Source: Candidatus Rifleibacteriota bacterium
GTDB taxonomy: Bacteria > Muiribacteriota > Ozemobacteria > Ozemobacterales > Ozemobacteraceae
Reading direction: 5' to 3'
NCBI GenBank assembly: GCA_028689875.1
Contig: JAQVCG010000003.1
Coordinates: 3,662-67,661, forward strand
Length of the DNA: 64,000 nt
Part shown: positions 5,598 to 57,991 of the stretch, piece by piece
Layout of the letters: every line of letters starts with the position of its first letter
Numbering within the stretch: the first letter of the stretch is position 1
The notes under the pieces: generated by a model
Told to the model about the DNA's origin: nothing
Database searches by the model: none
What the model saw: the letters and a program-made list of their open reading frames with translations, nothing else
Made by a program: the position numbers and the translations under genes

Positions 5598-5764
5598 AAT
5601 GCAATGATACTATTGCAGAGTTTTTTTGTCCACAAGAGAGTGTAATTTTTCACAAAGTCAATAAGAGTTTAAAACTATTCTCAAGCTAAACTTTTGCATA
5701 AACATTGCATCGCAGGAATTTGAATGCTAACCTTTAGGTAATCTATTAAATTTGGAGACTCTAT

Positions 5765-6205
5765 ATGGCTGTTAAAGTTTCAATATGGCAAACATTCAGT
5801 AAACTTAAATTAGAATTTGGACTCATCATTCTTTGCCTTTTACAATTTATTAAAATCATGTTCACGCTTATTACAGCAGGCCCCCAATTTAAAGGCATTT
5901 TTGAGGGTCTCAATGTCGAATTGCCTACTGTCAGCATAATTATATTAAGCTTTAATGACCTGTTTTATTCCTGGTGGTTTATAATTTTGCCGTTGATTAT
6001 TGTTATTCCCTTAGGCATAGCAATAGCTTGCATGAAAATCCTATTTACTAAAACAGCACAAAACCCTGATAGCGACTCAACTATTAAGCTACAATCCGTA
6101 ATTACTATTCTCTCTCTAATAACCATTGTATCGTTGGCATTTATAGGTGAAGCAATCAATAACGCAATTATGGCGCCCCTTCTGAGACTTGTTAACCCAA
6201 TGTAA
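5765..6205 (+). CDS. small 3-TM membrane protein resembling the membrane core of PilC/GspF platform proteins (no cytoplasmic T2SSF domains)
   Basis: A GGAG sits 7 nt upstream of the ATG. PQFKGIFEGLNVELPTVSIIILSFNDLFYSWWFIILPL matches the conserved TM1-loop-TM2 segment of PilC/GspF (compare P. aeruginosa PilC [37 protein letters not shown]). The C-terminal AIMAPLLRLV resembles the PilC terminal AMYLPIFQL. Confidence 0.45.
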   Translation: MAVKVSIWQTFSKLKLEFGLIILCLLQFIKIMFTLITAGPQFKGIFEGLNVELPTVSIIILSFNDLFYSWWFIILPLIIVIPLGIAIACMKILFTKTAQNPDSDSTIKLQSVITILSLITIVSLAFIGEAINNAIMAPLLRLVNPM

Positions 6206-6208
6206 CAA

Positions 6209-6886
6209 TTACTTAAGCTCGAATACTTTACCGGGCTCAAGTATAATTACTTCAGCGTTTTTGCCGACCTTATTCTTAAACTGATTTGGGTCGGCATTAA
6301 TAGCCGGAAAAGTATTATAATGTATAGGAACAACTCGTTTTGTCTGCAAATATTCAACTGCAATGGCGGCCGCGTCTACGCCCATTGTGTAAGTATCGCC
6401 AATCGGCAAAAAACTTAAATCGGGCTTAAACAGGTCACCAATCAGCTTCATTTCTAGGGTAAGTCCTGTATCGCCGGCGTGATAAACCTTTGACCCGTTC
6501 ATTTCGACTACAAACCCCGCCGGGGATCCAATATTCGCTGAATGGGCAGCAAAAACCATATTAAATACAACCCCGTCGACGACAATTTTGCCCCCGACAT
6601 TCATTCCAAGGGTCTTTAGGCCATGTTTTTCGGCTTTGTTAGCAAGCTCAGCACCACCTATGAAGGTCGCGTTATTTTCTTTGCAAATCGCGAAGGCATC
6701 GCCTATATGGTCACCATGTGCATGAGTTACGGCCACAAAGTCGACACCTGTTGATTGTTTTGCTCTCAGATTTTGCGAAGGACCTGCAAAGAATGGGTCA
6801 ATCAGTATAGTTTTATCTGCCTCAAGCTTAACGGCTGAATGGCCTAACCAAGTTATTTTCATCACAGCTCCTTTGCAATTTGTCAA
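6209..6886 (-). CDS. metal-dependent hydrolase, metallo-beta-lactamase fold (UPF0173-like)
   Basis: MKITWLGHSAVKLE...ILIDPFF and HAHGDH (HxHxDH) are present. The start is either 6886 (an ATGA overlap with the upstream fumarase stop) or the internal ATG at 6862 (MKITWLGHS). Confidence 0.75.
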   Translation of the reverse strand: MTNCKGAVMKITWLGHSAVKLEADKTILIDPFFAGPSQNLRAKQSTGVDFVAVTHAHGDHIGDAFAICKENNATFIGGAELANKAEKHGLKTLGMNVGGKIVVDGVVFNMVFAAHSANIGSPAGFVVEMNGSKVYHAGDTGLTLEMKLIGDLFKPDLSFLPIGDTYTMGVDAAAIAVEYLQTKRVVPIHYNTFPAINADPNQFKNKVGKNAEVIILEPGKVFELK

Positions 6887-9606: not shown

Positions 9607-9776
9607 ATAAGTTTCCTTGTTTTTTGGTACAGAATAACAAGTTTTTATTCTGCGGTCAAACTAATTAAGAGTGAAGTTTGAGAGTTTTAAGGTAAATATT
9701 TCTTTTTTTTTAATATTTGACGATAGATAGATATAGATAAAGATATATTTGGGCGAATATGCAAATCGGAGGCTTT

Positions 9777-11939
9777 ATGAAACCTAACATTTATTCTCAA
9801 AACATGAAAGCTTTGAGAAAAAACCTTCCTGAGCTGGCAAAGTTGATATCGGGGGAGTTAACTGCCGACTGCGAATACATAGTTGAAGAATCTAAAAGTA
9901 AAGAACTTACTTTAGCGATTAAAAGCGTCGACAAAACCACTCAGATACACAGCAAATACGACCCTGTTCGCGAGGCAAAGCAGCAGATCGAAAAATCAGA
10001 GATTGTAAACCCGAAACTTTTGGTTATATGCGGTTTAGGGCTAGGTTATCATGTTAAAGCAGCCTTAGAAAGCTTCAAAAAAGATATTGCTTACCTTTTT
10101 ATCATTGAAAGAGATCTTTCGGCCCTTAGAATAGCTGTCGAACACGTAGATTTGAGCGATTTGTTCAAAGACAAGCGCATAAAATGGCTCATCGGGCTCA
10201 AAGAAACTGAGGCTTACGCGGCTTGTTACAGCGCAATCAACCGCGAGGGCCTTTCCATGCAACTTAATTTAAAAACCATAACAGTATTCTCGCAACCTGC
10301 GCTTACAACGCTTTACGCCGACTACTACAAAGAAATGATGCGGCATTTTAAAGAAGCGGGGCACGCGACCATCTTCAACTACGGCAATTCGTCTGACGAT
10401 TCGCTGATTGGGCTGTATAACATATTAGACAACATAAACATTATAGTCAGAAACCCCGGCATTAAAGACCTTTACAACTCTTTTAAAGGGGTGCCCGGAA
10501 TTATTGTTTCGACGGGGCCTTCGTTGAGCAAAAACATTGAAAAACTCAAGCAGGCGGTGGGCAAAAGCATTATTGTGGCGGCAGATGCGTCGCTTGCGCC
10601 GATGTATAAGAGGAACATTAAGCCCGACATGACAGTGAGTTTAGAGCGCATAACCAAGACCGGGCACATGTATGAAGAGCTGGACGAGGATTACAAGAAA
10701 GACATTTATTTAGCGGCAACGCCGGTCATTATGAATATGGCTTACGAACAGTGGAACGGGCCGAAAATCATTGTTTACAGAGATTTTGCACATTTTAAGT
10801 GGGTCGGCATTGATAGAGGGATTTTGCCTATCGGGCCGTCTTGTTCGAATCAGGCATTTCAGATTTTGAAGGCTATGGGTTGCGACCCCATAATTTTGGT
10901 GGGGCAAGACTGTGCATTCGAAAGTCTCGAAAAGACACACGCCGACGATGTTTCGGCTATGACGAAGCTTAATTTGCGTGAAACGGATTTGATTAAAGTT
11001 AAGGGCAACTACACTGATTGGGTTTATACGAACAACATTTACAACATTTTCAGAAAGAATTTTGTGACTGATATTGCGGCATACAGCGGCAAATGCATAA
11101 ACTCAACCGAAGGCGGCGCATTTATTGAAGGTACTGAGCTTATGACACTGCAAGAGGCCATAGACAAATATTGCACAAAAGAAATAGACATTAAAGAAGT
11201 GTGCAATAAAAAGCTAAAAACCCCCACAGACAGTGATGTGTCATCAAGCTGGGCAACTTTTAAGAGAGTTTTAAAAGAAACAATCAAAGAAGTTGAAGAG
11301 GTAATTTCGGGTTGCAACAAAGGGGTTGAAGAGATTACTAAATTTGAAGAACGTCTTGCCAACGAGGGCTACAATGAAATTGAAGACTTTTTAGAGCGGT
11401 TTCCGGAAAATGATTTAAACGCTGTATTTTTGATACTTAACAAGATCAGGCTTAAAATAGTTACATCGGGCAAGTATTTCAATTTGTTTCTAATGCACAT
11501 TATTCAAATGATTATAATACATTTTGAAATAGAGTTTAATGCGCTGCCAAGCATGTCGCAAGATCAAAAGCGGTGCAGATTGCAGGCCATAAGAATGCTT
11601 AAGAAATGGTTCCCACAAATTCGCGATGTCTCAAGACGTTCACTTGAACACATTAAGAGCCAAAAAGCTGAAAATTACAGAAACGAAAGAGTTTTCGAGC
11701 GGGTAATTCTTGAAGACAAGCCTTTATTTGACGTAAGCTGGGAAGAATACAAAAAAGGCGTGTTAGATCAAAACCCCACCGATGCTGACAGGCACAGTCT
11801 GCTGTTTTATTATGCAAAAGAGCAGGAAAACATGCGTAAAGAAAACCACTACATGACGAAAAGAGATTTAGAACGTCACCAACAGCGCATAGCAGAGCTG
11901 AAGCAAGCGTTAAAAGACTATTTCAACTTAGAAGTATAA
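9777..11939 (+). CDS. Maf-like (motility-associated-factor / DUF115, MptE-like) putative glycosyltransferase
   Basis: The central block GVPGIIVSTGPSLSKNIEKLKQ...IIVAADASLAPMYKRNIKPDMTVSLER is the hallmark GPSL...D..L....I.PD motif of DUF115/Maf proteins. I prefer the ATG at 9777, which has a GGAGG 4 nt upstream; the ORF track starts at 9759. Confidence 0.7.
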   Translation: MKPNIYSQNMKALRKNLPELAKLISGELTADCEYIVEESKSKELTLAIKSVDKTTQIHSKYDPVREAKQQIEKSEIVNPKLLVICGLGLGYHVKAALESFKKDIAYLFIIERDLSALRIAVEHVDLSDLFKDKRIKWLIGLKETEAYAACYSAINREGLSMQLNLKTITVFSQPALTTLYADYYKEMMRHFKEAGHATIFNYGNSSDDSLIGLYNILDNINIIVRNPGIKDLYNSFKGVPGIIVSTGPSLSKNIEKLKQAVGKSIIVAADASLAPMYKRNIKPDMTVSLERITKTGHMYEELDEDYKKDIYLAATPVIMNMAYEQWNGPKIIVYRDFAHFKWVGIDRGILPIGPSCSNQAFQILKAMGCDPIILVGQDCAFESLEKTHADDVSAMTKLNLRETDLIKVKGNYTDWVYTNNIYNIFRKNFVTDIAAYSGKCINSTEGGAFIEGTELMTLQEAIDKYCTKEIDIKEVCNKKLKTPTDSDVSSSWATFKRVLKETIKEVEEVISGCNKGVEEITKFEERLANEGYNEIEDFLERFPENDLNAVFLILNKIRLKIVTSGKYFNLFLMHIIQMIIIHFEIEFNALPSMSQDQKRCRLQAIRMLKKWFPQIRDVSRRSLEHIKSQKAENYRNERVFERVILEDKPLFDVSWEEYKKGVLDQNPTDADRHSLLFYYAKEQENMRKENHYMTKRDLERHQQRIAELKQALKDYFNLEV

Positions 11940-12311
11940 CTAGAAATCGGAGTAATTTTTACCGTCGAGGCTTTGGCCTTCGGCACCGGATTTCACATCA
12001 TAAAGATCGTTTAGGCCCTCTTCGGAGGGCACATAGACCCAAGTATCAGTGCGATTGGTAAAGGGATCTAGGGGCACAGATCGCAGATAACCCTCTTTAA
12101 CGAGAGTATTTAGTGATTCGGGCCATTTTTCGTTGTCTTTGTAGTAATCACTTATCAGAGAGCGAAAAGTCTGCAAATTCTGTTTAAGAGCAGACTCTTT
12201 AGCACGGGTTACAGATTTGCTGTACATTGGCGTGACGGCGGCGACTAGAACACCTATGATTGCAACTACCACGCTGAGTTCTATAAGAGTAAAGCCTTTT
12301 TTGCGTGTCAT
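11940..12311 (-). CDS. GspG-like type II secretion / type IV pilin-family pseudopilin
   Basis: It has a class III signal peptide and the N-methylation motif MTRKKG|FTLIELSVVVAIIGVL, with Glu at position +5. The body (LxxALxxYYxDNxxWPxSLxxLVxEGYLxxVPxDPF...Y...SGAEG..LDG) is colinear with GspG/EpsG. Confidence 0.85.
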   Translation of the reverse strand: MTRKKGFTLIELSVVVAIIGVLVAAVTPMYSKSVTRAKESALKQNLQTFRSLISDYYKDNEKWPESLNTLVKEGYLRSVPLDPFTNRTDTWVYVPSEEGLNDLYDVKSGAEGQSLDGKNYSDF

Positions 12312-12348
12312 TTGAATAACCTCTAAATCTATTTAAATTGGCGATTTA

Positions 12349-13389
12349 TCAAACTTTTGTTGATCTTAAAAGTTCAAGAAATGCGTCAGCAGAGGGTCTG
12401 TCGATGGCATTTTTCAGAATAAGGTGGTTTATATATTCTCCAAAGAGTGCACTGCCCATGGCTAGATTCATTATGTTGCCTTCCAGTTGTGAAGCTTTGC
12501 CTTTTTGAATGATTCCTGCGGCAATGCTGTTCATAATCAAGGTTTCAAAAGCAGGCACAATCTGGTTGCCATTTTTTGTTGAAATTAGTGCCTGAGAACA
12601 GACTCCAATCAGGTTGTCAGCCAGCACCTGCCACACGTAATCTCTGTGTTCTTCGGGAAAATCGAAAACAAACTTTTCGATTGCTGCGACGAAACCTAAT
12701 GAAGACATAGCAAGTATGACAAAACTGCCGCCTGCAACCAGCTCTAGTATGCTTTTAAACGGGATAGTTTGTTTTATGTCAGATATAATAAAGGTATCGA
12801 CGTCCATTTTTTTTGCAAAATTGAGTCCTTGGTTGAAGTCAAGAATGTCTTTGCCTATTTGTCTTTGTGTTATTCGAGATTTTTTAGATTCAAAGTTAAA
12901 TTCTATGGGGTCTTCGATAGTAATTATGTGTCTCGAGAATTTGTTATTAAGGTGCTCAACGATAGCCGCTATTGTTGTAGATATGCCTGATCTTGCAGGG
13001 CCGGTGATAATAAACAAACCTTTTCTTGATTCAATTAAAGGAATTAATGCATCAGGGAAGTTTATTTCTTTAAGCCCCGGTATTTTATTGCTGATTATTT
13101 TAATGATCAGCACCGGTTTTTCTTGTGCTTGAAATACTGTTAAGCGTATGTTTGCGGATAATTTTCCGAAGATATTTATTTCAAAAAAGGTTTTTTTTGC
13201 CACTTTTTTAAGTTCTTCGGGAGCCAATAACTCGTTTAACACGCCTGTCACGTCTTCTTCAACAATTATCGGCAAATCCATGCCACGAAGCTGTTTATTT
13301 TTGCGCATAAGCGGCTTTGAGCCTATTTTGAGCTGAATTTCATTGCCGCCTTCGCTGATTACTTTTTCTACCAGTTTTCCTATATCCAT
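12349..13389 (-). CDS. PilT-family ATPase paralogue, degenerate (Walker A Lys replaced by Ile; Walker B and His box altered)
   Basis: It is PilT-sized (346 aa) and colinear with PilT. The Asp box TIEDPIEF is intact. Walker A reads GPARSGIST, with the Ile codon ATA at 12982-12984 on the minus strand. Walker B reads FIISDIKQ instead of ILVGEMRD. The His-box histidines are replaced (GGSFVILAMSS). Confidence 0.8.
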   Translation of the reverse strand: MDIGKLVEKVISEGGNEIQLKIGSKPLMRKNKQLRGMDLPIIVEEDVTGVLNELLAPEELKKVAKKTFFEINIFGKLSANIRLTVFQAQEKPVLIIKIISNKIPGLKEINFPDALIPLIESRKGLFIITGPARSGISTTIAAIVEHLNNKFSRHIITIEDPIEFNFESKKSRITQRQIGKDILDFNQGLNFAKKMDVDTFIISDIKQTIPFKSILELVAGGSFVILAMSSLGFVAAIEKFVFDFPEEHRDYVWQVLADNLIGVCSQALISTKNGNQIVPAFETLIMNSIAAGIIQKGKASQLEGNIMNLAMGSALFGEYINHLILKNAIDRPSADAFLELLRSTKV

Positions 13390-13400
13390 TTTTCACTCTC

Positions 13401-14441
13401 CTAGTTGCTGAACCGCTTTTTGTCGATAGAGAATTCGGCTGCCGCCTTTTTGGTAATATAGCCGGTTCTAAGAAGTTCAGCCAGTTGCGAATCGAAGGTT
13501 TTCATTCCTGCTATCTCGCCTTGCGACTGCAAAGTTCTGAACATTGTGAAGTTGTTGTTTCTGATTAAAGAGCGCAGTTGGGGAGTGTTGACCATAACGT
13601 CAAAAATAGCTTTGCGCCCGCTTTGGTCTGTTTTTGGCACCAAACGCTGACTTATAATCATAGTCAGCTGAGATGCCAACTTAGAGCGCAACATTTCACG
13701 TTCAGAAGGGCTTCTTAAATTTATAATTCTTTCTAATATTTGCAGACAATCGCCGCCTTCGGTTCCGCCTATTACTGTGGTTCCGCTTTCACAAAGGCTT
13801 AGAGCTTTATCCATTGCATCGGGATAATTGAGTGAGTCAGAAACAACCACATCGGGGTTAACTCTGCCCATTTCACACAGACCGGCATAGAAATTACTTA
13901 TATCCAGAGGAATACTTCTTTGAATAATGGCAGATTTATTATCTTTGAACACGTATTCAACGGGGTTTTCAATAGTAATTATATTTTTTTCAAAATAGCT
14001 GTTATAAAAATTTATAATCGAAGCAATAGTGCTTGTTTTGCCCTCGCCTGAAGAGCTTCCGACCAAAATTAGGCCGGCATGTTGCGCCAGAACCTTTTTA
14101 ATGGCTTCAGAGAATCCCAATTCTTGAAAACCATAAATTTTGTCACTTATAAAGCGCACCGACATGGCAAAACGCCCTCTATCAAAAAAAACAGAGAAGC
14201 GCAGTCTGCCCACAGTTTCGACATCTGCCGCATAAGTTACTTGCCTATATTTACCGAGTATCTCACGGGCTTTTGGGGAGCTTGTTTCTAGTATTATTTT
14301 TTTAATATGCTCTTCAGCGACTGTTAACGAATCTAAGGTTTGTATTGTGCCGTTAACCCGATAATATACCGGACAATCTGGGTAAAGATGCATATCAGAT
14401 GCACCTTTAACTTTTACAAGCTGACAAACTTTTAAAAGCAT
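13401..14441 (-). CDS. PilT-family ATPase paralogue, degenerate (P-loop Lys retained; Walker B and His box altered)
   Basis: The 346-aa protein is colinear with PilT (ASDMHL..., RFSVF...). Walker A reads GSSSGEGKTST. The Asp box reads TIENPVEY. Walker B reads VVVSDSLNY instead of ILVGEMRD. The His box reads ESGTTVIGGTEGG instead of ETGHLVFGTLHT. Confidence 0.8.
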   Translation of the reverse strand: MLLKVCQLVKVKGASDMHLYPDCPVYYRVNGTIQTLDSLTVAEEHIKKIILETSSPKAREILGKYRQVTYAADVETVGRLRFSVFFDRGRFAMSVRFISDKIYGFQELGFSEAIKKVLAQHAGLILVGSSSGEGKTSTIASIINFYNSYFEKNIITIENPVEYVFKDNKSAIIQRSIPLDISNFYAGLCEMGRVNPDVVVSDSLNYPDAMDKALSLCESGTTVIGGTEGGDCLQILERIINLRSPSEREMLRSKLASQLTMIISQRLVPKTDQSGRKAIFDVMVNTPQLRSLIRNNNFTMFRTLQSQGEIAGMKTFDSQLAELLRTGYITKKAAAEFSIDKKRFSN

Positions 14442-14460
14442 TTTTGTATCCTACCTTCTT

Positions 14461-16605
14461 TTACATTCTCTGCAGCAATTCTAACACATTTTTAAGAACT
14501 TGGCTGTCAGGCGGAAGCGTTTTTCTTAAGCCCTCAAGTATGATTCGGGCTTTATCAGTTTCGCCGATAGCAAAATGGCAGAGCGCCAAGTGATAAGTCG
14601 ACGACAAATCGCGAGCATTAGCCTTTAACCCCACATTTAAAGCCGCAATAGCTTCAGCATATTTTCTTTGGTTGTAATAAGCCAGTCCTAAGGCCCCGAA
14701 TACTTTGATAATATTCTTTTTGTCGTCGCTTTTAAGATATTTTTTAAGTATTTGGTAACATTTTGCAAGATTTGCCCAATCTTTGTTTCTAAAATAAACT
14801 TGCCCCAGTAAAATACCGGAATTTATTCTTTCGGGGTTCAGTTCAAACACCTTTGATAGAGCGCTCTCAGCGCCTGCCATATCGCCCAGTTTATATAGAG
14901 TGCTGCCCAAAAAGTAGCCTGCATCGGCATTTTCCGGTTGAATTGCCAAAAATTCAGTAAACACATCGCGTGCACGAGCAAAATCTTCGTTAAGATAATA
15001 TTCGCGGCCTTTTGCCATAAGTTCTTCAGGGGTCATTGCGGGCACATCAAAGTTAGCTACACCCGCCATATCGGCTTTAACTTCTTTTTCAAAGGCTTTT
15101 AGAAGCACCGTCGAATAGGCATCAACATTTTGCACAAAAGCCCCTACCTCGCCTGCAATACGCACGAACACGGTTTTTTCTTGTTCTCTCTTTTTATCTG
15201 CCAGTCCCTGCGCAACCTCTTCAAAGACCGGTAATTCACCGTTTAAAAGCAAGGCGCGATAGTATTCTGCAAAAACTCCGGCTCTTACCGGACCCAAAAA
15301 CTTTTTGGCTTTAACAAGACATTCACGGGCGCCCAAATGCCCTAACGCGGCTATAAGCCACTCAATTTCTTCTTCTTTTTCCAGTTTGATTCTGTTGAGT
15401 ATTTTTTCTGAAGTCACGCTCAGCTGGTGCTTTACGATATATTTCAATATTACTTCGATAACCGGAGATGAGTTTTCTTTGTCTAATAATTCAACTATTT
15501 TTTCATCAGGGAAATCGTTGATGAAAGTTGCGCATTCAACCGCTTCTCTTCTGACCCATTCGCTTTCATCATTTAGCAAAGGCAGAATTTCGCGCAGTCC
15601 GACAGCGCTTGTTAGTGACAAAGCTGCTTTTAATGCCATTTTTCGCACACCAGGATTACTATCGCCTAAAAGCTTATGAATATACTCTTCGCGTTTGGGA
15701 TTTTCGATAACCGACAAAACATATGCGGCCGAACGTCTTGTTGGAGCATCGGCGCTTACTATCATAGCATCAAGTTCATCACTCACAGCTTTTGGGTCTG
15801 CCTTTGCAAGCGCCAAACACACATTGGCTCTGACACGATTATTCGGGTGACCGTAAAAGTTTTTGAGTTTGCGTTTCATTTCCAGAGCGGGAATTTTTAG
15901 CATGGAAATAGCTTCGACGGCATTAGCTTGAATACGCGGGTCAAATGATTCTAAGCCGCTTTCAAAGGTCTTAAGCAGCCGCCCTTCTGCAAAGGTTGAA
16001 AGTGACGATATAATTATTGCTTTAAGACGAGCATCGCGAGAGGTTTCGAACTGTCCTACCAGCGCCGGCACAGCTTCGGGATCCTGCATTTTAGATAAAA
16101 TTTCTAATACGTTAATAACTATCCATTCGTCAGGGTCGCTGAGCAAGCTGCAAAGCGCATGCACAACATCGCGGCCGCCCATTTTAAAAAGGGCACGTGC
16201 AGAATAATATCTGACCATCCTGTCTTCGTCGTGCAAAAGCTCCATTAAGGATTTGGTGGCCATTGGGTCGCCAATTTCGCCCAGCACGCGCACTATTTCG
16301 TCTTTATAAAGGGCATCGGGGTCTTGCAGTCTGTCTATGAGCTTTGATACGGGCGAGCTGTTTTTGAAATACCCTAATGCGGTTATAGGCTCAACATAGT
16401 CGTAAAAATGATCGAATGCGCGCGTTAACACAGACAAGGATTCGGGGTCACCTATTTTTCCTAACGCCAAAAGCGATTCAAGTCTTAATGTGTCGGATGA
16501 ATCATCATCGGCGGCGATCTTTTCGAGTGTCTGGGTCGCAGGTTTCAGCAGTCTGCGTGCCGCTTTAACATATCTAAACGATTCAATTTCAAAAGTAGCA
16601 GTCAT
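14461..16605 (-). CDS. HEAT-repeat (PBS-lyase-type) plus C-terminal TPR protein
   Basis: The N-terminal two thirds carry repeated DP..VR..A..AL..IGDP.A...L motifs (for example HDEDRMVRYYSARALFKMGGRDVVHALCSLLSDPDEWIV). The C-terminal third carries TPR units (YFLGSTLYKLGDMAGAESALSKVFELNP...). The start codon overlaps the stop of the upstream pilT as ATGA at 16602-16605. Confidence 0.8.
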   Translation of the reverse strand: MTATFEIESFRYVKAARRLLKPATQTLEKIAADDDSSDTLRLESLLALGKIGDPESLSVLTRAFDHFYDYVEPITALGYFKNSSPVSKLIDRLQDPDALYKDEIVRVLGEIGDPMATKSLMELLHDEDRMVRYYSARALFKMGGRDVVHALCSLLSDPDEWIVINVLEILSKMQDPEAVPALVGQFETSRDARLKAIIISSLSTFAEGRLLKTFESGLESFDPRIQANAVEAISMLKIPALEMKRKLKNFYGHPNNRVRANVCLALAKADPKAVSDELDAMIVSADAPTRRSAAYVLSVIENPKREEYIHKLLGDSNPGVRKMALKAALSLTSAVGLREILPLLNDESEWVRREAVECATFINDFPDEKIVELLDKENSSPVIEVILKYIVKHQLSVTSEKILNRIKLEKEEEIEWLIAALGHLGARECLVKAKKFLGPVRAGVFAEYYRALLLNGELPVFEEVAQGLADKKREQEKTVFVRIAGEVGAFVQNVDAYSTVLLKAFEKEVKADMAGVANFDVPAMTPEELMAKGREYYLNEDFARARDVFTEFLAIQPENADAGYFLGSTLYKLGDMAGAESALSKVFELNPERINSGILLGQVYFRNKDWANLAKCYQILKKYLKSDDKKNIIKVFGALGLAYYNQRKYAEAIAALNVGLKANARDLSSTYHLALCHFAIGETDKARIILEGLRKTLPPDSQVLKNVLELLQRM

Positions 16606-17639
16606 TCAACTATCTCTTTCATTATGTTACTAATCAGCTTAGGGTCAACTCTTTCGTCTTTTAGAATTTCCCCGAGTGAATCTTTGAGTGTCTTACACCC
16701 CTCTTTTCTGGCAAGCATCAAGGCTGATTTAAGCTGATTTGATTTTCTTTCGCGTATCATGTTTCTCATGGCCGAGTTTAGTATCATGAGCTCGTAAGCC
16801 ATGGCGCGTTCTTTTTTATGAATACAAGGCAAAAGGATTTGTGAAATAAGCCCTATAAGTGACATTGAAAGCTGGGTTCTGATTTCATCGTGTCTGTGGC
16901 CGGGAAACATATTGATTATGCGGTCAATTGTTTGCACTGCCCCGACTGTGTGAAGGGTCGAAAAGACAAGGTGTCCTGTTTCAGCGGCTGTAAGCACCAT
17001 TTCAATAGTTTCTACATCGCGCATTTCGCCTACCAGAATTACATCGGGGTCTTCTCTGAGAGCGTTCATTAAAGCACTCTGATAAGACGATGATGTTACG
17101 CCGATTTCACGTTGTGTAAAAATTGATTTTTTTTCTTTATAAACAAATTCTATGGGGTCTTCGATTGTAACAACATGCCTTGATGAGCTGCGGTTTATTT
17201 CGTTGACAATCGAGGCAAGAGTATGTGTTTTACCGGAGTTTGCGGGGCCGGTTACTAAGAACAGCCCGCGTGGCTTAAGAGCAATTTCTTTTAAAATTGG
17301 GGGCAATCCAAGATTGTCGACAGACGGAATGTCAAGGGGAATAAATCGAAAAGCGCCCGACAGACAACCTCTTTGCATATAAATACAAACGCGCACGCGC
17401 CAACGGTTTTTATATTTAGCCATAAAGTTGGCCTCAAAGGTTTGCTTAAGATCTGTTTGCGACTTTACGTCCATTAGGGGCAAAAACAAATTTGGCATTT
17501 CTTGGTAGGCCAAAGGTTGTTCTGCAAGAGGAATAAGCCTGCCGCCGACTCTTATAATTGGCGGCGAACCGGCTTTAAGATGCAAATCTGAGGCTTTTCG
17601 TTCAATTGCGATTTCAAAATATTTATATATTTTCAGCAT
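16602..17639 (-). CDS. pilT: PilT-type (retraction-type) type IV pilus ATPase, catalytic motifs intact
   Basis: All four catalytic boxes are intact: Walker A GPANSGKT, Asp box TIEDPIEF, Walker B DPDVILVGEMRD and His box ETGHLVFSTLHT. At 345 aa it lacks a PilB/GspE N-terminal extension. Confidence 0.85.
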   Translation of the reverse strand: MLKIYKYFEIAIERKASDLHLKAGSPPIIRVGGRLIPLAEQPLAYQEMPNLFLPLMDVKSQTDLKQTFEANFMAKYKNRWRVRVCIYMQRGCLSGAFRFIPLDIPSVDNLGLPPILKEIALKPRGLFLVTGPANSGKTHTLASIVNEINRSSSRHVVTIEDPIEFVYKEKKSIFTQREIGVTSSSYQSALMNALREDPDVILVGEMRDVETIEMVLTAAETGHLVFSTLHTVGAVQTIDRIINMFPGHRHDEIRTQLSMSLIGLISQILLPCIHKKERAMAYELMILNSAMRNMIRERKSNQLKSALMLARKEGCKTLKDSLGEILKDERVDPKLISNIMKEIVE

Positions 17640-17641
17640 AA

Positions 17642-18757
17642 TCAGACCCTTTGCCCGACGACTTCGTTAAGCAGTTTATGAAGAGAAGCAGGGTGCGGTG
17701 CAACTGAGAAAGCGTCTTCTTTAGATACAACGCGATCTTTAACAAGTCGGGCGAGCGACATTTCCATTGTGCACATACCCTGCTCAACGCCTGTTTCGAG
17801 ATAAGAGGGCAGCATATGTATTTTGCCTTCGGCGATTAGAGAGCGGACTGCCGATGTGTTCAGCAATATTTCGAATGCTGCGACACGGCCGCCATCGATT
17901 TTTGGAACTAAGACCTGTGAAACCACGCCGCGCAGAACCATAGAAAGCTGTAAAAGTATTTGCTGATGCTTTGATTCAGGAAATACATTGACGATTCTCT
18001 CTGCAGTTGCAACAGCCGATGTTGTATGCAGAGTTGCCAAAACAAGTTTTCCGGTTTCAGCGGCATTTAGGGTCAAAGAAATTGTAGAAGGCTCGCGCAT
18101 TTCGCCTACAACGACTATATCCGGGTCTTGGCGCAATACGGTCAAGAGACCGTCATAGAAGCTCAGGCAGTCAGAGCCGACCTGGCGTTGGTTAAAATAG
18201 CTTTTTTTGTCTTCGAATTGGTATTCGATGGGGTCTTCGAGGCTTACTACATGGCGGGCGGCTTCGTTGTTAACGTAGTTTAGGTAGCTTGCCATGGTTG
18301 AAGTTTTACCGGCACCGGTGGGGCCTGTTATTAAAATAAGTCCGTTAGGCTGCTCAATGAGCCTTCTTGCGGCCTGTGGCAAACCGATTTCGTCGAAAGT
18401 CATGATGCGGTATGGAATAACGCGAAAAACAGCGCCGAAGCCGTTAAGGTCGGTATAAAGATTAACTCTGAAACGGCATATTCCCTCGAGAGCATATGAA
18501 AAGTCAAGTTCGTGCTTTTCTCTGAATATGCGCTCTTGCTCTTGATTCAGCAAAACTTCGATAATTTTTTCGAAATCATATTTGTTGAATTTATATTCTT
18601 TGAGCTGCTTGATTACACCATCAATTCTGATAGCGGGAGGTTTTCCGACTTTAAGATGCAAGTCAGAAGCGTTTTGTTCGAAAGTAAGCTTAAGCAATTT
18701 AAATAAACTTCGTTCGTCTGCCATAGTTTTAGAGTATACCTGCTTATTGATGTACAT
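17642..18757 (-). CDS. pilT: PilT-type type IV pilus ATPase, catalytic motifs intact
   Basis: All four catalytic boxes are intact: Walker A GPTGAGKT, Asp box LEDPIEY, Walker B DPDIVVVGEMRE and His box ETGKLVLATLHT. The alternative start at 18724 (MADERSL) cannot be excluded. Confidence 0.85.
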   Translation of the reverse strand: MYINKQVYSKTMADERSLFKLLKLTFEQNASDLHLKVGKPPAIRIDGVIKQLKEYKFNKYDFEKIIEVLLNQEQERIFREKHELDFSYALEGICRFRVNLYTDLNGFGAVFRVIPYRIMTFDEIGLPQAARRLIEQPNGLILITGPTGAGKTSTMASYLNYVNNEAARHVVSLEDPIEYQFEDKKSYFNQRQVGSDCLSFYDGLLTVLRQDPDIVVVGEMREPSTISLTLNAAETGKLVLATLHTTSAVATAERIVNVFPESKHQQILLQLSMVLRGVVSQVLVPKIDGGRVAAFEILLNTSAVRSLIAEGKIHMLPSYLETGVEQGMCTMEMSLARLVKDRVVSKEDAFSVAPHPASLHKLLNEVVGQRV

Positions 18758-18806
18758 TCAAGAATAAACTATTCATAGGGGGGATGTAAATATATAAAAC
18801 TTTGCT

Positions 18807-18835
18807 TTGAAAAAATTACTTAAGTTTGGTATATT
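18807..18835 (+). promoter_or_regulatory. putative sigma70-type promoter with extended -10 for the HEAT/TPR gene
   Basis: TTGAAA (18807-18812), then a 17-nt spacer ending in TGg, then TATATT (18830-18835). It lies 36 nt upstream of the ATG at 18871. Confidence 0.4.
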
Positions 18836-18870
18836 ATCACTACTTCTTATTTTTACAGGGAACTCTTACA

Positions 18871-21291
18871 ATGACTAAAACAGCGGTTCTGATGAACATA
18901 CAACCTCTTATTGCGAGACTTATCAACAATTTTTTGATTGGAGAGTATGATTTAAGACGCGAATCAGCTATAGCACTATCAAAGTTCAAAGGTGAAAAAG
19001 CCACAGACTTTTTACTTGAAACCTATGAAAGCGACAACATTCAAGACTTTATGGCGCTTGCGCTAGGCAACATAGACAGCTCAAAGTCGGTGGGTTTGCT
19101 AATAAATGCACTGAATGATTCCCAACAAGAAGTAAGATTTAATGCTGCTCGCGCACTTGGCATGCTCGAAAACCCCGAAGCATTCGACATTTTAATGGAA
19201 GCTTTGAACACATACATTGAAACAGGCGCAGGCACATCGTTGCCGACAGAGGGCGAAGGGATAGAAGAACATTCTTCCCAGCTGTTTTTTGAAGAAGATG
19301 CGATTATCGGCGCAATAATAGCAGTTGGAAAAATCAAGAACTGGCGCGCAATTTCGCTGCTAAAAAAACTGTTAGGGCAAGAAAAAAGCCCGCGAATAAG
19401 GGCATCGATAATTATGGCTCTTGGTATGATGGCATCAGACAAGCTTATGCCTGTATTTCAGTCAGCTTTGCGCGATGAAGACCCCCGCGTAAGAGCAAAT
19501 GCCATTGAAGCAATCGAAGTTCTGAAGTCTAGTTCGATTGTGGGAATTTTGCAGCCCTACCTCGAAGACCCAAGCAACCGTGTACGTGCGAACGTTGCTA
19601 AGGCAATTTGGAAATACGGCGACTTCGAAGTAAGTGAAACTTTGCAGCAAATGCTTTCTCACAAAGATAAATGGTACAGAGCATCGGCAGCTTATGCTAT
19701 TGGCGAAACCGGCGATGCAAAGTTTCTGCGGCAGCTTTCCCAATCATTAAAAGACGAAGACCCTGATGTGCGTAGAAATGCGACAAACGCTATCAGAAAA
19801 CTGGAACTTAAAACTGCCCTGCCCCACGTTCGGCCCATGCTAAACGATCCAAATTTTGATGTGCGTGTCGAAGCAGTTCTGGCAATCACCAGATGCGCTC
19901 CCGATGATGCATTGGAAATTTTAAAAGAAAAATTGCCAAAAGAAGAAAACTTTATTGTTCAGGCAACTTTAATCTCTTGTTTGGGGCAATTAGGCAACGC
20001 CGAAATAATTGATTTGATTACGCCATATCTTGAATCAGAAGACCCGCGCGTGGTTTCTAACACAATAGAAGCCATATCTAAGATGACACGAGAACCTCAA
20101 TTAGAGCTCGTGCAGGGCATTAACAACCTTTTAAGCCATGACGATAACCGGGTTAAGAGCACAGCCATAAGAAATCTTTGGAGCTGGGGCAAATACGACG
20201 TATTAGACAATTTAAACTCCCTGTTTGCCTCTGACGAGAAAAAAATGGTTTTGTCGGCAACCTTTGTGTTAGGCGAAATCGGTAAAGAAATCAGCTTAAA
20301 CGATGAAATGGCAAAATCGGTCAACGAAATATTATCAAATCTTCTCGAAGACCCCGATGCCATAAGACAAGCAATTGGCAGCGCACCCAAATCAGATATA
20401 GCCTCACCTGCAACTGCAAAAGCCTCCGAACCGGAACAAACAAATGTCATTGAACAACCTAAGGCAGCAGAAAAGAGCAAACCCGAAGTGGCAAAATTCA
20501 GAGACAAGCTTGAAAAAGTCTCTGAAAACGCGGCGCAACCTATTGAGCCGCCACAGGAACCCGTAGTTACACCGCAAATAATCGCTGACACTCGTTTTGC
20601 CGACGATATTGAGCTTGCAAATGAATATGTAACAAGCAGAAACTTTGATTCTGCCGAAAAAATATACAAAAGCATATATACTGCAGAACCTAAACACTTG
20701 AAAAATCTGTTGGCTTATGCAAACCTGTGCTTTATGCAAAAACGCTACAACGAAGCAGCAGACCTGTATAACCGAGCCCTTGAAATCAACCCGAATATAG
20801 TTAAGGCTCTATTTAACTTAGGTACGATTTGTTTTTATACCCGAAAATATGAAAATGCAGTTAATTACTTGGCAAAAGCATTACAGCTTTATCCAAAGAT
20901 TTTAGGTGCATACTTAATTCTGGCGCAAATTTATCAAATTGCGGGAAAATACAGCGAAAGCATAAAGCTTTTATCTCATGCTGTCACTCTATCGCCGCGC
21001 AATCCGGTAATTTACCAAAAGCTTTCTGCACTGCACATTCAACTTAAACAGTATGATGATGCTATTAAAGTGCTTAAGCGCGCTGTAGAAATTTCACCGG
21101 CCGATGTTGAATCAAGGCTGATATTAGGTTATTGTCTCGAATACTGCAACAAACATCAAGATGCATTTATAATGATTGATTCAGCTATAAAAGCGGCCGC
21201 AAATTCGGCTAATACAGAGGTTTCGTTTAAGCAGCTTCATAAAGCATACGTCTTTTTGAATCAAATTCTCGAAGAACAAAAAATAATCTGA
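18871..21291 (+). CDS. HEAT-repeat plus TPR protein (paralogous architecture to 14461-16605)
   Basis: The N-terminal half carries HEAT units (EDPRVRANAIEAIEVL, EDPSNRVRANVAKAIW, EDPDVRRNATNAIRKL, DPNFDVRVEAVLAI). A Pro/Glu/Ala-rich low-complexity linker follows, then C-terminal TPR units (YNRALEINPNIVKALFNLGTICF...). I prefer the ATG at 18871 because the TTG at 18826 lies inside the predicted promoter. Confidence 0.8.
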   Translation: MTKTAVLMNIQPLIARLINNFLIGEYDLRRESAIALSKFKGEKATDFLLETYESDNIQDFMALALGNIDSSKSVGLLINALNDSQQEVRFNAARALGMLENPEAFDILMEALNTYIETGAGTSLPTEGEGIEEHSSQLFFEEDAIIGAIIAVGKIKNWRAISLLKKLLGQEKSPRIRASIIMALGMMASDKLMPVFQSALRDEDPRVRANAIEAIEVLKSSSIVGILQPYLEDPSNRVRANVAKAIWKYGDFEVSETLQQMLSHKDKWYRASAAYAIGETGDAKFLRQLSQSLKDEDPDVRRNATNAIRKLELKTALPHVRPMLNDPNFDVRVEAVLAITRCAPDDALEILKEKLPKEENFIVQATLISCLGQLGNAEIIDLITPYLESEDPRVVSNTIEAISKMTREPQLELVQGINNLLSHDDNRVKSTAIRNLWSWGKYDVLDNLNSLFASDEKKMVLSATFVLGEIGKEISLNDEMAKSVNEILSNLLEDPDAIRQAIGSAPKSDIASPATAKASEPEQTNVIEQPKAAEKSKPEVAKFRDKLEKVSENAAQPIEPPQEPVVTPQIIADTRFADDIELANEYVTSRNFDSAEKIYKSIYTAEPKHLKNLLAYANLCFMQKRYNEAADLYNRALEINPNIVKALFNLGTICFYTRKYENAVNYLAKALQLYPKILGAYLILAQIYQIAGKYSESIKLLSHAVTLSPRNPVIYQKLSALHIQLKQYDDAIKVLKRAVEISPADVESRLILGYCLEYCNKHQDAFIMIDSAIKAAANSANTEVSFKQLHKAYVFLNQILEEQKII

Positions 21292-37916: not shown

Positions 37917-38296
37917 TATTTTACCTCCTGCTTTTCTAATACGGTTTCAAAAATATTTTTTAGATGTGCACGCGATAAGCCCATAGTAACGCTATTTTTA
38001 ACAATTTCTTCTACTTTTCGTGTAATCTCAATTATTATCTGTTTAAGCACCTTATCTTCGTTTTGAGGAGTAACAAAGGCTCCTTGCCCACGCTTGAAGT
38101 ATATAAGATTATCGCTTTCTAATTCTTGAAAAGCCTTTGAAATAGTAGCCGGGTTAACCTTTAATTCCGCAGAAAGTTCTCGAATAGATGGGAATCTTGA
38201 ATCGGGTTCATACACTCCGGAGAATATTTCGCGCCTAAGTGCATCAACAATTTGACGGTAAATAGGGATTGGAGATCTGTCATTAATAATTATCAT
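37916..38296 (-). CDS. GntR-family transcriptional regulator, YtrA-like (short effector domain)
   Basis: PIYRQIVDALRREIFSGVYEPDSRFPSIRELSAELKVNPATISKAFQELESDNLIYFKRGQGAFV is a canonical GntR winged helix. The total length is only 126 aa. Its ends overlap both neighbouring genes. Confidence 0.85.
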   Translation of the reverse strand: MIIINDRSPIPIYRQIVDALRREIFSGVYEPDSRFPSIRELSAELKVNPATISKAFQELESDNLIYFKRGQGAFVTPQNEDKVLKQIIIEITRKVEEIVKNSVTMGLSRAHLKNIFETVLEKQEVK

Positions 38297-49485: not shown

Positions 49486-50298
49486 TTGCTTATCAACATC
49501 ATTCAGGGCATAATTCAAGGCCTAACGGAGTTTTTGCCCGTCTCAAGCTCGGGACATTTAACATTGTTTCAGCATTTTACAGGCAGACACGACCTTGAAG
49601 CCAACATTTTTACAGATATAGCGCTTCATTTCGGCACTTTGCTGGCTGTTATATTTTATTTTAGAGCCGATTTATTGCCTTTTTTTACTATCTCCGGACT
49701 TAAAGACTCAAAAGTGCGCCGTCTTGGCTTGTTAATAATCACAGCTAGCGTTCCAACAGCCTTAATCGGACTTTTTTTCGAAAAAAAATTTGAAGCTGTT
49801 TTTTCATCGCCTTCGCTAGTAGCTATTGCTCTTTTCGTAACCGGTCTGCTGCTTTTAATTGCTGAAAAAATTAAAACCAAGCAAAGCACAAATAGACTAG
49901 AAAACATAACAGAGCTGAGTTACACAAAAGCTGCAATAGTCGGAATTGCACAAGGATTAGCGGTAACACCAGGCATTTCAAGATCGGGCACAACTATTTC
50001 TGCAGGCCTTTTATCAAATTTGAAAGGTGAAGATGCGGCTCGTTTTTCATTTTTACTTATGATACCTGCGGTCGGCGGTGCTACCTTGTTGCACATACTA
50101 AAGGCTTTTAAAGCCGGAATTCCGGCTTCAGTTGAAGTATCCGCTCTTTTTCTCGGAATGATTGTTGCTGCAGTTACCGGTTTTCTATCTTTACGCTTTT
50201 TGTCTTACATCATAAAAAAACAAAAACTTTCTTATTTTGCATACTATCTTTTCGCGGTTTCGCTTGCCGCACTTTTCTTTATTAATTTTGCGGGGTAA
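49486..50298 (+). CDS. uppP: undecaprenyl-diphosphate phosphatase
   Basis: The N-terminal hallmark is GIIQGLTEFLPVSSSGHL, with a later PGISRSGTTI motif. The start is a TTG with a GGAGG 6 nt upstream. Confidence 0.9.
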   Translation: MLINIIQGIIQGLTEFLPVSSSGHLTLFQHFTGRHDLEANIFTDIALHFGTLLAVIFYFRADLLPFFTISGLKDSKVRRLGLLIITASVPTALIGLFFEKKFEAVFSSPSLVAIALFVTGLLLLIAEKIKTKQSTNRLENITELSYTKAAIVGIAQGLAVTPGISRSGTTISAGLLSNLKGEDAARFSFLLMIPAVGGATLLHILKAFKAGIPASVEVSALFLGMIVAAVTGFLSLRFLSYIIKKQKLSYFAYYLFAVSLAALFFINFAG

Positions 50299-50302
50299 TA
50301 AA

Positions 50303-57942: not shown

Positions 57943-57991
57943 TGACCAAAGCAAACATAGATTTAGTCACAGTATGCAAGGAGACAGGCAA

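Follow-up and report, generated by a model that had tools for sequence, protein, structure and literature searches.

The genome of an uncultured bacterium of Candidatus Rifleibacteriota (GenBank assembly GCA_028689875.1) contains, in a stretch of 64,000 nucleotides (nt) that we call here the window (contig JAQVCG010000003.1, positions 3,662 to 67,661), a run of six minus-strand genes for two intact PilT-type ATPases (T1 and T2), a HEAT/TPR repeat protein (B), two further PilT paralogues (T3 and T4) and a small pilin (G), with the gene for a second HEAT/TPR protein (A) divergent from them. Our results indicate that T3 and T4 are functional, conserved, non-catalytic PilT-fold proteins, because the substitutions in their catalytic motifs are invariant among orthologues, their ratios of non-synonymous to synonymous substitution rates (dN/dS) are low and the fold is retained.

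A sequence-only reading of the window had described the six genes as one tightly packed unit, and the coordinates of the open reading frames (ORFs) confirm both the positions and the intergenic gaps that it gave, of 2, -4 (an ATGA overlap), 19, 11 and 37 nt. That reading omitted A, which belongs to the conserved module. The features of the module in the window are as follows.

T1: 17642-18757, minus strand; PilT-type ATPase with intact motifs, 371 amino acids from the first ATG; probable start at 18724, giving 360 amino acids
T2: 16602-17639, minus strand; second PilT-family ATPase with intact motifs, 345 amino acids; 4-nt overlap between its stop and the start of B
B: 14461-16605, minus strand; predicted cytoplasmic protein with HEAT (N-terminal) and TPR (C-terminal) repeats, 714 amino acids
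T3: 13401-14441, minus strand; PilT-fold paralogue, 346 amino acids, P-loop Lys and Thr present, catalytic Glu and His box gone
T4: 12349-13389, minus strand; predicted PilT-fold pseudo-ATPase, 346 amino acids
G: 11940-12311, minus strand; small type IV pilin or pseudopilin, 123 amino acids, with a class III signal
A: 18871-21291, plus strand; predicted cytoplasmic HEAT and TPR protein, 806 amino acids, divergent from the operon
T1/A divergent intergenic region: 18725-18870, no strand; presumed to hold the promoters of both transcription units

Catalytic motifs of the four ATPases

Pfam family T2SSE was found in all four ATPases, with E values of 1e-41 (T1), 2e-43 (T2), 2e-19 (T3) and 7e-12 (T4). 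Catalytic competence was judged by three residues, the Lys of Walker A, the catalytic Glu and the His of the His box; T1 and T2 have all three, T3 lacks the Glu and the His, and T4 lacks all three. In T3, Walker A reads (V)GSSSGEGKT, with Lys and Thr present, the Asp box reads ENPVE and has thus lost its Asp, and the Walker B region (VVSDSLNY) has a Ser in place of the catalytic Glu, with no His box. The Walker A of T4 reads GPARSGIST, with the Lys replaced by Ile, and its Asp box (EDPIE) is intact; its catalytic Glu is replaced by Asp in the Walker B region (IISDIKQ), again with no His box. Both arginine fingers are present in T3, and T4 has the first of them and either Lys or Arg at the second position. 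Motif alignment thus bears out the earlier description of two intact and two degenerate PilT paralogues, with the refinement that T3 is only partly degenerate, since the Lys and Thr of its Walker A are intact. As deduced from these motifs, T3 is probably able to bind nucleotide but not to hydrolyse it, and T4 would be unable to bind nucleotide in the usual way and would still offer a trans-acting finger.

Walker A and Walker B, together with the catalytic Glu, the Asp-box Glu and the arginine fingers, are reported to be completely conserved across PilT-like ATPases, and the His is highly conserved (PMC5424180); judging from the alignments, T3 and T4 are real exceptions to the conservation rule of McCallum et al. 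The curated cut-off of the NCBIfam model TIGR01420 (pilT_fam, PilT/PilU family type 4a pilus ATPase), 319.1 bits over the whole protein, is passed by T1 (413.6 bits) and T2 (391.1 bits), and T3 (272.9 bits) and T4 (217.1 bits) score below it. By these scores T3 and T4 are PilT-derived proteins that fall outside the PilT/PilU family as curated.

Searches of the PDB retrieved PilT structures for all four proteins: full-length matches of T1 to PilT of A. aeolicus (2ewv, E = 3e-94) and of T3 to PilT2 of T. thermophilus (5fl3, E = 5e-53), a match of T2 to Geobacter PilT4 (5zfq, E = 1.5e-86), and a match of T4 to PilT at E = 3e-39, as against 1e-25 or worse for PilB-class chains. Together with the TIGR01420 scores, these matches support the earlier assignment of all four to the PilT class and not to the PilB/GspE class.

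Conservation, selection and fold of T3 and T4

The orthologues of T4 make up 40 clusters at 48–93% identity to it, below which there is a drop to ordinary PilTs at about 30%. Walker A reads GP[AT]RSGIST in 40/40 clusters (39 with GPARSGIST and one with GPTRSGIST), and all 40 have EDPIE, an Asp for the catalytic Glu and no His. In two more distant loci, L005 and L066 (we designate related loci by L and a number), the motif is GPCRSGIST, the replacement of Lys by Ile being invariant. Likewise, the orthologues of T3 form about 118 clusters at 47–97% identity, followed by a drop to 34%; the 116 full-length clusters all keep GK[ST], have an Asp box of the form [ED]NPVE, and have neither a Glu after Walker B nor the His (116/116).

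Reading frames of T3 and T4 are intact in every locus, with 42–68% identity across lineages of 38–65% GC. In comparison with the close relative L089, at a dS of about 0.6–0.8, dN/dS was 0.020 for T1, 0.015 for T2, 0.028 for T3 and 0.046 for T4, and 0.035 for the nearby fumarase gene, so that T3 and T4 are constrained to the extent of a housekeeping gene. An AlphaFold2 model of T4 (pLDDT 87.4) had Geobacter PilT4 (5zfq) as its best Foldseek match, with a TM-score of 0.91, within a range of 0.86–0.91 for PilT structures. The PilT-like two-domain fold (N2D and CTD) is thus present in T4 by the model and in T3 by full-length alignment, with arginine fingers present.

As judged from these comparisons, the catalytic residues of T3 and T4 were replaced before the phylum diversified, and strong purifying selection has acted on both proteins from then on. 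An ancient and selected degeneracy is thereby supported (116/116 clusters for T3, 40/40 for T4, dN/dS of 0.03–0.05), and the result bears on the possibility that T3 and T4 are decaying duplicates without a function of their own. Decay would agree with the loss of catalytic residues and with scores below the PilT-family cut-off, but it is refuted by the conservation data, in which the frames are intact, the same substitutions recur in all clusters, dN/dS is low, identity is kept across a broad range of GC contents and a confident full-length PilT fold is retained; we regard it as effectively excluded.

By our searches, neither T3 nor T4 has an orthologue outside Candidatus Rifleibacteriota. All organism-specific source names in the orthologue range are Riflebacteria, Rifleibacteriota, Rifleibacterium or Ozemobacteraceae, bar four that are probably mis-binned, three given as Erysipelotrichia (proteins P0040, P0134 and P0237) and one as Clostridiales (P0174). 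A HMMER search of 1.84 billion protein representatives with a T4 profile recovered the T4 family as one 50% cluster and no related pseudo-ATPase family beyond it, and an exact-sequence look-up of T4 gave no record. Scans of 185,579 species genomes with the T4 profile and of JGI metagenomes with the T3 profile yielded at least two and at least seven true orthologous loci, respectively; both were dominated by automatically derived peptide patterns (EDPIE-type and QRSIP-type) generic to PilT, and their counts do not amount to a census of the phylum.

P0050, a degenerate PilT-like protein of a different lineage, was considered as an analogue and rejected, because its gene is located in an ordinary pilM-pilB-pilT-pilC-pilA-pilD cluster.

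The intact ATPases T1 and T2

According to their motifs, T1 (GPTGAGKT, EDPIE, VGEMRE and TLHT) and T2 (GPANSGKT, EDPIE, VGEMRD and TLHT) are catalytically intact PilT-family ATPases. None of the T1 motifs is altered in the protein of the window, in four related loci or among the scanned clusters of T1 orthologues; the start of the orthologues corresponds to the internal ATG at 18724, for a protein of 360 amino acids. The C-terminal AIRNLIRE-type motif is close in T2 (AMRNMIRE), looser in T1 (AVRSLIAE) and T3 (QLRSLIRN), and degenerate in T4. T2 is the most conserved protein of the module, with 81–85% identity across lineages. We rejected its identification as PilU, because T2, with 345 amino acids, lacks the C-terminal extension and its match to PilT surpasses that to PilU (9n32, E = 7e-66). 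In a neighbour-joining (NJ) tree, T2 stands apart from putative PilU-type proteins (about 400 amino acids) of L036, and T1 groups with canonical PilT.

Synteny and history of the module

The order of divergent A followed by T1-T2-B-T3-T4-G recurs in a complete genome of 5.2 Mb (L001) and in L002, L088, L089, L090 and L092, apart from the losses of pilin genes given below, and also in the high-GC Ozemobacteraceae loci L005 and L066 (63–65% GC). The conservation of the gene neighbourhood that the sequence-only reading had proposed to check is therefore borne out in relatives of 38–65% GC, with the addition of divergent A. Parts of the module occur in loci truncated by contig ends, namely A, T1 and T2 in L067, T2 to S (a pilin-like gene, see below) in L091, cut upstream of T2, and B to G in L093. 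In the basal assembly GCA_015232575.1, T1-T2-B (L172) and T3-T4-G (L087) are on separate contigs; L173 contains T1-T2-B alone, L094 contains T3-T4 alone, followed by a radical-SAM gene, and in L171 a T1 with 51% identity is still in the order T1-T2-B. T4 directly follows T3 in 14/14 loci that extend far enough. This distribution shows that the module is built of two older sub-modules, T1-T2-B and T3-T4(-G), with T3-T4 as an invariant, always-adjacent and obligate pair.

Conservation decreases from T2 (81–85% identity) and T1 (75–80%) to B and T3 (about 58–68%), A (59–63%), and G and T4 (about 42–65%). The NJ tree contains four monophyletic paralogue clades, each with the pairs L066 + L005 and L001 + L002, with T3 and T4 on long branches. 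Neighbouring genes for RecG, SMC-like and SpoIID proteins recur in L001, L002 and L088. In all, the module looks vertically inherited and specific to Candidatus Rifleibacteriota.

The basal loci have neighbours of their own. A cyclic nucleotide monophosphate (cNMP)-binding protein gene lies 11 nt upstream of T1 in L172 (9342-9989), and a gene for a cNMP-binding Ser/Thr kinase is divergent from T1 in L171 (25-1428), which hints at cyclic-nucleotide control of the T1-T2-B sub-module in basal Riflebacteria. A radical-SAM gene directly follows T3-T4(-G) in L087 (12586-13368) and L094 (12127-12975), and L087 contains PqqD-like genes and an asparagine-synthase-like gene nearby, which suggests a cluster of the type that makes ribosomally synthesised and post-translationally modified peptides near T3-T4 in this locus.

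The HEAT/TPR proteins A and B

Pfam comparisons identified HEAT_2 in six stretches of B (E = 1e-44), together with C-terminal TPR_16/19/2, and in seven stretches of A (E = 5e-68), together with TPR families. The two proteins are paralogous, with 28% identity over 404 amino acids of the HEAT part (E = 1e-29). The ORF of A opens at a TTG at 18826, and its orthologues start at the ATG at 18871; A occupies the same divergent position in L001, L002, L005, L066, L067, L088, L089, L090 and L092. Sequence analysis of A and B detected no signal peptide and no hydrophobic or transmembrane segment, and both are thus predicted to be soluble cytoplasmic HEAT and TPR repeat proteins.

The analogy to the TPR pilotins PilF/PilW/Tgl, raised in the sequence-only reading, did not hold, because both proteins are cytoplasmic by these predictions: we rejected pilotins as candidates since A and B have no lipoprotein signal and score far under the cut-offs, with 30.3 (B) and 55.1 (A) bits for the PilW model TIGR02521, against a cut-off of 154, and 35.5 bits for the Tgl model, against 225.

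B directly follows T2 in all the loci examined, and the 4-nt overlap of the two genes is kept in almost every lineage, with seven examples (the window, L001, L002, L088, L089, L172 and L173). The N-terminus of B has a conserved peptide, IE[SP]FR[YL][VI]KAxRRL[LI][KR]P, and the conservation profile peaks in the HEAT region at residues 100–260. Because of this peptide, the conserved HEAT region and the translational coupling to T2, a stoichiometric T2-B complex can be postulated. The PDB matches of B were all to designed HEAT and TPR repeat proteins, and offered no clue to its function.

The pilin G and its paralogue S

G contains a class III signal, KKG/FTLIELSVVVAIIGVL (KKG/FTLIE, the slash marking the cleavage site), with Gly-1, Phe+1 and Glu+5 and a hydrophobic segment at residues 4–34, and this signal is conserved in its orthologues. 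With 33.7 bits for Pfam N_methyl and 34.8 bits for TIGR02532 (cut-off 16.3), G belongs, by signal and family scores, to the type IV pilin and pseudopilin superfamily. Its earlier description as GspG-like is only loosely true: the match to Pfam T2SSG is borderline (21.7 bits for a cut-off of 21), but G fails the GspG equivalog model TIGR01710 (51.4 bits, cut-off 88.85), its match to the GspG globular domain in the PDB reaches only E = 0.007, and its N-terminal helix is closest to type IVa pilins of Geobacter, Neisseria and Myxococcus. As G has a canonical prepilin signal, we infer that a prepilin peptidase must exist somewhere in the genome.

Orthologues of G were found in L001, L002, L005, L066, L087, L089, L091, L092 and L093. 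In six of these loci (L001, L002, L005, L066, L091 and L092), G is followed by S, which overlaps its stop and codes for a pilin-like paralogue of 126–146 amino acids that shares 28–31% identity with G (E about 1e-10), lacks a Glu at +5 and matches no model of Pfam or NCBIfam; the missing Glu5 recalls the minor pseudopilin GspK. S is absent from the window, and L088 has neither G nor S. In most lineages, including a basal one, G or the pair G and S directly follows T4, with gaps of 2–37 nt. The positions of S in three of these loci are as follows.

S in L001: 11417-11827; pilin-like, after G
S in L002: 11411-11791; pilin-like, after G
S in L066: 11357-11797; pilin-like, after G

Surroundings of the module and missing machinery

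The window, in which every ORF of at least 150 amino acids was compared with Pfam, contains no PilB/GspE, T2SSF, secretin, PilM/N/O or prepilin peptidase (peptidase A24), and the 10-kb flanks of about 20 related loci, too, lack any platform protein, secretin, prepilin peptidase and extension ATPase; neither window nor flanks hold a complete gene cluster for a type IVa pilus, type II secretion, Com or Tad system. The absence from the window of PilB/GspE, full-length PilC/GspF, PilMNOPQ/secretin and peptidase, noted in the sequence-only reading, is thus confirmed, the sole related feature being a 146-amino-acid ORF that resembles a PilC hairpin. The description of a self-contained module in that reading is unsupported, in view of the peptidase-dependent signal of G, which needs machinery encoded elsewhere, of the lack of platform protein, peptidase and secretin in the window and the related loci, of the loss of G in L088 and L094 and of the splitting of the unit in basal lineages.

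The 146-amino-acid membrane ORF (5765-6205, plus strand) resembles the hairpin of the first two transmembrane segments and their loop in PilC/GspF at residues 40–84 (PQFKGIFEGLNVELPTVS...WWFIILPLIIV). It has no Pfam match; comparison with a PilC by BLASTP gave E = 2e-4, and its sole PDB match is PilC from M. xanthus, at the homologous position, with E = 1.2. About 35 weak tblastn matches were found, mostly 0.6–0.9 kb downstream of a pilT-like gene in unrelated loci, which is the position of pilC in L085. The stretch of some 550 nt that bears the ORF (about 5660-6209) is absent from the close relatives L089 and L090, and the ORF is probably a strain-specific fragment or mini-protein derived from PilC.

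The remaining Pfam content of the window includes [FeFe]-hydrogenase maturases, a fumarase, a Maf-type glycosyltransferase, alanine racemases, oxaloacetate decarboxylase, EF-P, FtsK and giant TPR proteins; a comparison of the whole window with Rfam retrieved only a tRNA-Ala. The GC content of the module is that of its surroundings, repeat and feature scans detected no repeats, integrase genes or adjacent tRNA at the module, and repeat analysis revealed only the paralogy among the four ATPase genes. Convergent on G, and with its stop codon directly adjacent to that of G without any gap, is the gene for a Maf/MptE-like protein of 726 amino acids (9759-11939, plus strand). Maf, for motility accessory factor, designates glycosyltransferases of the type that modifies flagellin; this neighbour is confined to the lineage of the window (also L089 and L090) and is outside the conserved module.

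Two consecutive plus-strand genes code for giant TPR proteins of 1612 and 1542 amino acids (53104-57942 and 57974-62602), the first of which is overlapped at its start by the stop of an FtsK/SpoIIIE gene upstream (50237-53107). Genes for large TPR proteins are likewise found beside the module in L172, L173 and L087, and, from these and the pair in the window, the phylum seems rich in such proteins. Two further uncharacterised proteins adjoin each other, one of 806 amino acids with a Tim44-like domain (40404-42824, minus strand; PF04280, E = 2.5e-14) and one of 671 amino acids without family match (38293-40308).

A possible role for the module and its alternatives

We propose, in a reading that we hold to be about evenly balanced between right and wrong, that the module serves as accessory motor and as regulator of a type IV filament machine, either a pilus or a pseudopilus, whose platform protein, peptidase and extension ATPase would be encoded elsewhere in the genome. 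T3 and T4 together would form a non-catalytic PilT-like ring, or would intercalate into rings with T1 and T2, and such a T3/T4 ring, in the role of adaptor, clutch or brake, might control the timing with which the active motors contact the platform protein, much as PilT links PilU to PilC, or as FlaH works beneath FlaI in the archaellum. A hetero-oligomer of T3 and T4 would be the simplest reading, because of their constant adjacency, their parallel evolution and the ring-interface residues and fold that both have kept; within it, T3 would bind nucleotide unhydrolysed and T4 would give trans elements only. B, and probably A, would scaffold or localise the ATPases, and G, and S where present, would be a specialised pilin handled by the same machine. 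By analogy with the stacked PilT-PilU model (see below), the mixed hexamers or regulatory stack scaffolded by a HEAT/TPR protein that the sequence-only reading had suggested are plausible.

Several observations weigh against this proposal. T1 orthologues were found only within the module, the most divergent of them in the T1-T2-B arrangement, and never beside pilB/pilC, and our literature searches found no published description of pili in Riflebacteria, Rifleibacteriota or Ozemobacter. The absence of G from L088 and L094, where T3-T4 persist, indicates that the link of the module to a pilin is not obligatory. We infer co-transcription of the operon from gene spacing alone: promoter-like sites exist in the T1/A intergenic region, on the plus strand at 18807-18835 (TTGAAA-17-TATATT, with TG) and on the minus strand at 18790-18761, which are consensus matches only, and the scan for promoters and terminators was not used as evidence because its counts were not above shuffled expectation. 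Also, the NJ tree is a rough one, in which a long-branch effect may account for the deep placement of T3 and T4.

The finding of T1 orthologues only inside the module, and the lack of an extension ATPase and of other machinery from both the window and the flanks, would suit a self-contained PilT-only filament machine, in which paralogues, HEAT/TPR scaffold and pseudopilin would jointly drive extension and retraction with no PilB/GspE-class ATPase, as the single, bifunctional motor CpaF powers both in Tad pili. However, nothing in the module can span the membrane or process prepilins, T2SSF, peptidase A24 and secretin are missing from all of the roughly 20 loci, L088 and L094 do without the pilin, basal lineages have the unit in two parts, and in well-studied bacteria it is normal for pilT-pilU to be unlinked to pilB/pilC; we consider such a machine quite improbable. 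It is rather improbable, too, that Rifleibacteriota lack any PilB/GspE-class extension ATPase and that the module is a new type IV filament engine, with a dead T3/T4 hetero-ring as stator or adaptor and T1 and T2, on HEAT/TPR scaffolds, driving assembly and disassembly of a G/S filament. A weaker form of this idea would make the T3/T4 pair the first pseudo-enzyme ring known from nature in the PilT/VirB11 superfamily, and a nucleotide-sensing clutch for retraction motors.

The loss of the pilin in some lineages in which T3-T4 stays is also what would be expected of a cytoplasmic signalling or remodelling complex of ATPases and pseudo-ATPases that is no longer tied to pili, with T3 and T4 as nucleotide sensors, the HEAT/TPR proteins as client adaptors and the pilin as passenger or target. 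The cNMP-binding protein genes that flank T1 in basal lineages and the generic role of HEAT/TPR proteins as protein-protein adaptors point the same way, and Geobacter PilT1, encoded with recA, shows that PilT paralogues occur in non-pilus contexts (PMC5065972). Such a complex is nevertheless unlikely, though not far-fetched: T1 is about as close to studied PilTs (E = 3e-94) as bona fide PilTs are between phyla and scores above the cut-off of the PilT family, T2 and, in a looser form, T1 have a C-terminal motif of PilT type, and G or G and S come right after T4 in most lineages. A role of the ATPases and HEAT/TPR proteins in anti-phage defence, or as cargo of a mobile element, finds support in weak PADLOC matches of A and B to HEAT-ARM candidate families; these matches are generic HEAT and partial P-loop ones, however, with none for T3, T4 or G, and a GC content like that of the surroundings, the lack of repeats, integrase or adjacent tRNA, and vertical inheritance, deduced from the lineage pairs shared by the paralogue trees and from the recurring RecG, SMC-like and SpoIID neighbours, make this explanation very hard to credit.

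PilT-family motors are among the strongest molecular motors known. The coordination of PilT and PilU has reportedly been modelled only in 2025–26, and the cooperation of paralogues on one machine is an active question. The module offers a natural system for it, in which two paralogues were made into conserved non-catalytic subunits, beside two active motors and two repeat-protein partners. If T3 and T4 do form rings with or under the motors, the module would provide a way to study asymmetric, sequential firing of hexamers, a case of regulation by pseudo-enzymes among the ATPases of the secretion superfamily and candidate HEAT/TPR docking motifs, such as the N-terminal peptide of B. As the proteins are soluble and of ordinary size, heterologous expression and cryo-electron microscopy are feasible, even though the phylum is uncultured.

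Comparison with known systems

Close parallels are the PilT-PilU pairs that retract type IVa pili in Vibrio, Pseudomonas, Acinetobacter and Myxococcus, which are also tandem PilT-family paralogues encoded away from pilB/pilC; there, one paralogue needs the other to reach the machine, with PilT bridging PilU to PilC (PMC6762196, PMC13584747), and in the stacked PilC-PilT-PilU model one PilT-family hexamer docks another to the platform (Teipen et al., bioRxiv 10.1101/2025.10.30.685630). The likeness extends to T1 and T2 both passing the PilT/PilU family model. Unlike the module, these pairs have no HEAT/TPR genes alongside, and PilU is catalytically active and its activity is needed, whereas here there are four paralogues, two of them non-catalytic, and T2 lacks the PilU-type C-terminal extension.

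Geobacter sulfurreducens, with PilT1-4, and Myxococcus xanthus, with PilT and four paralogues, likewise have several PilTs per genome, some of them with auxiliary or unknown roles. None of the paralogues in Geobacter (PMC5065972) or Myxococcus (PMC13584747) has lost Walker A, Walker B, the Asp box or the His box, and every multi-PilT system that we looked up in the literature has only catalytically competent paralogues; those of Geobacter and Myxococcus are dispersed or paired, Geobacter PilT1 being co-transcribed with recA (PMC5065972), and do not form one operon with repeat-protein scaffolds as they do here.

A functional counterpart for a non-catalytic ring can be seen among archaea. The archaellum motor FlaI-FlaH(-FlaX) combines a hexameric ATPase of the secretion superfamily with a ring of a nucleotide-binding, hydrolysis-deficient P-loop partner and a scaffold; FlaH, however, is RecA/KaiC-like and not a paralogue of the motor, so that the analogy is functional only. 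The cytoplasmic regulator SgmX and the outer-membrane pilotins PilF/PilW/Tgl resemble A and B in being TPR proteins that assist type IV pilus machines, and A and B both match the models of PilW and Tgl below threshold; SgmX acts on the extension side, and is not known to have a large HEAT array like that of A and B.

Tandem PilT-PilT fusions of 660–1024 amino acids from metagenomes (P0241-P0252 and P0261) force two PilT modules into one complex. Most consist of two intact modules, and in P0249 and P0261 one or both halves are degenerate in Walker A and the His box; by analogy, these last two support the idea that active and degenerate PilT modules can work as a pair. They differ from the module in being fused genes, uncharacterised and not specifically related to T3/T4, and the high scores of the fusions with the T4 profile, the next best after the T4 family itself, arise because two domains are summed.

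The sequence-only reading could not map the arrangement to any described operon, and we came to the same result in literature searches and curated libraries, in which none was found; searches of the literature for PilT pseudo-ATPases, likewise, returned no account of this module. In all, we know of no such arrangement in any pilus or secretion system, and it is the conserved pair of apparently dead PilT paralogues that sets it apart.

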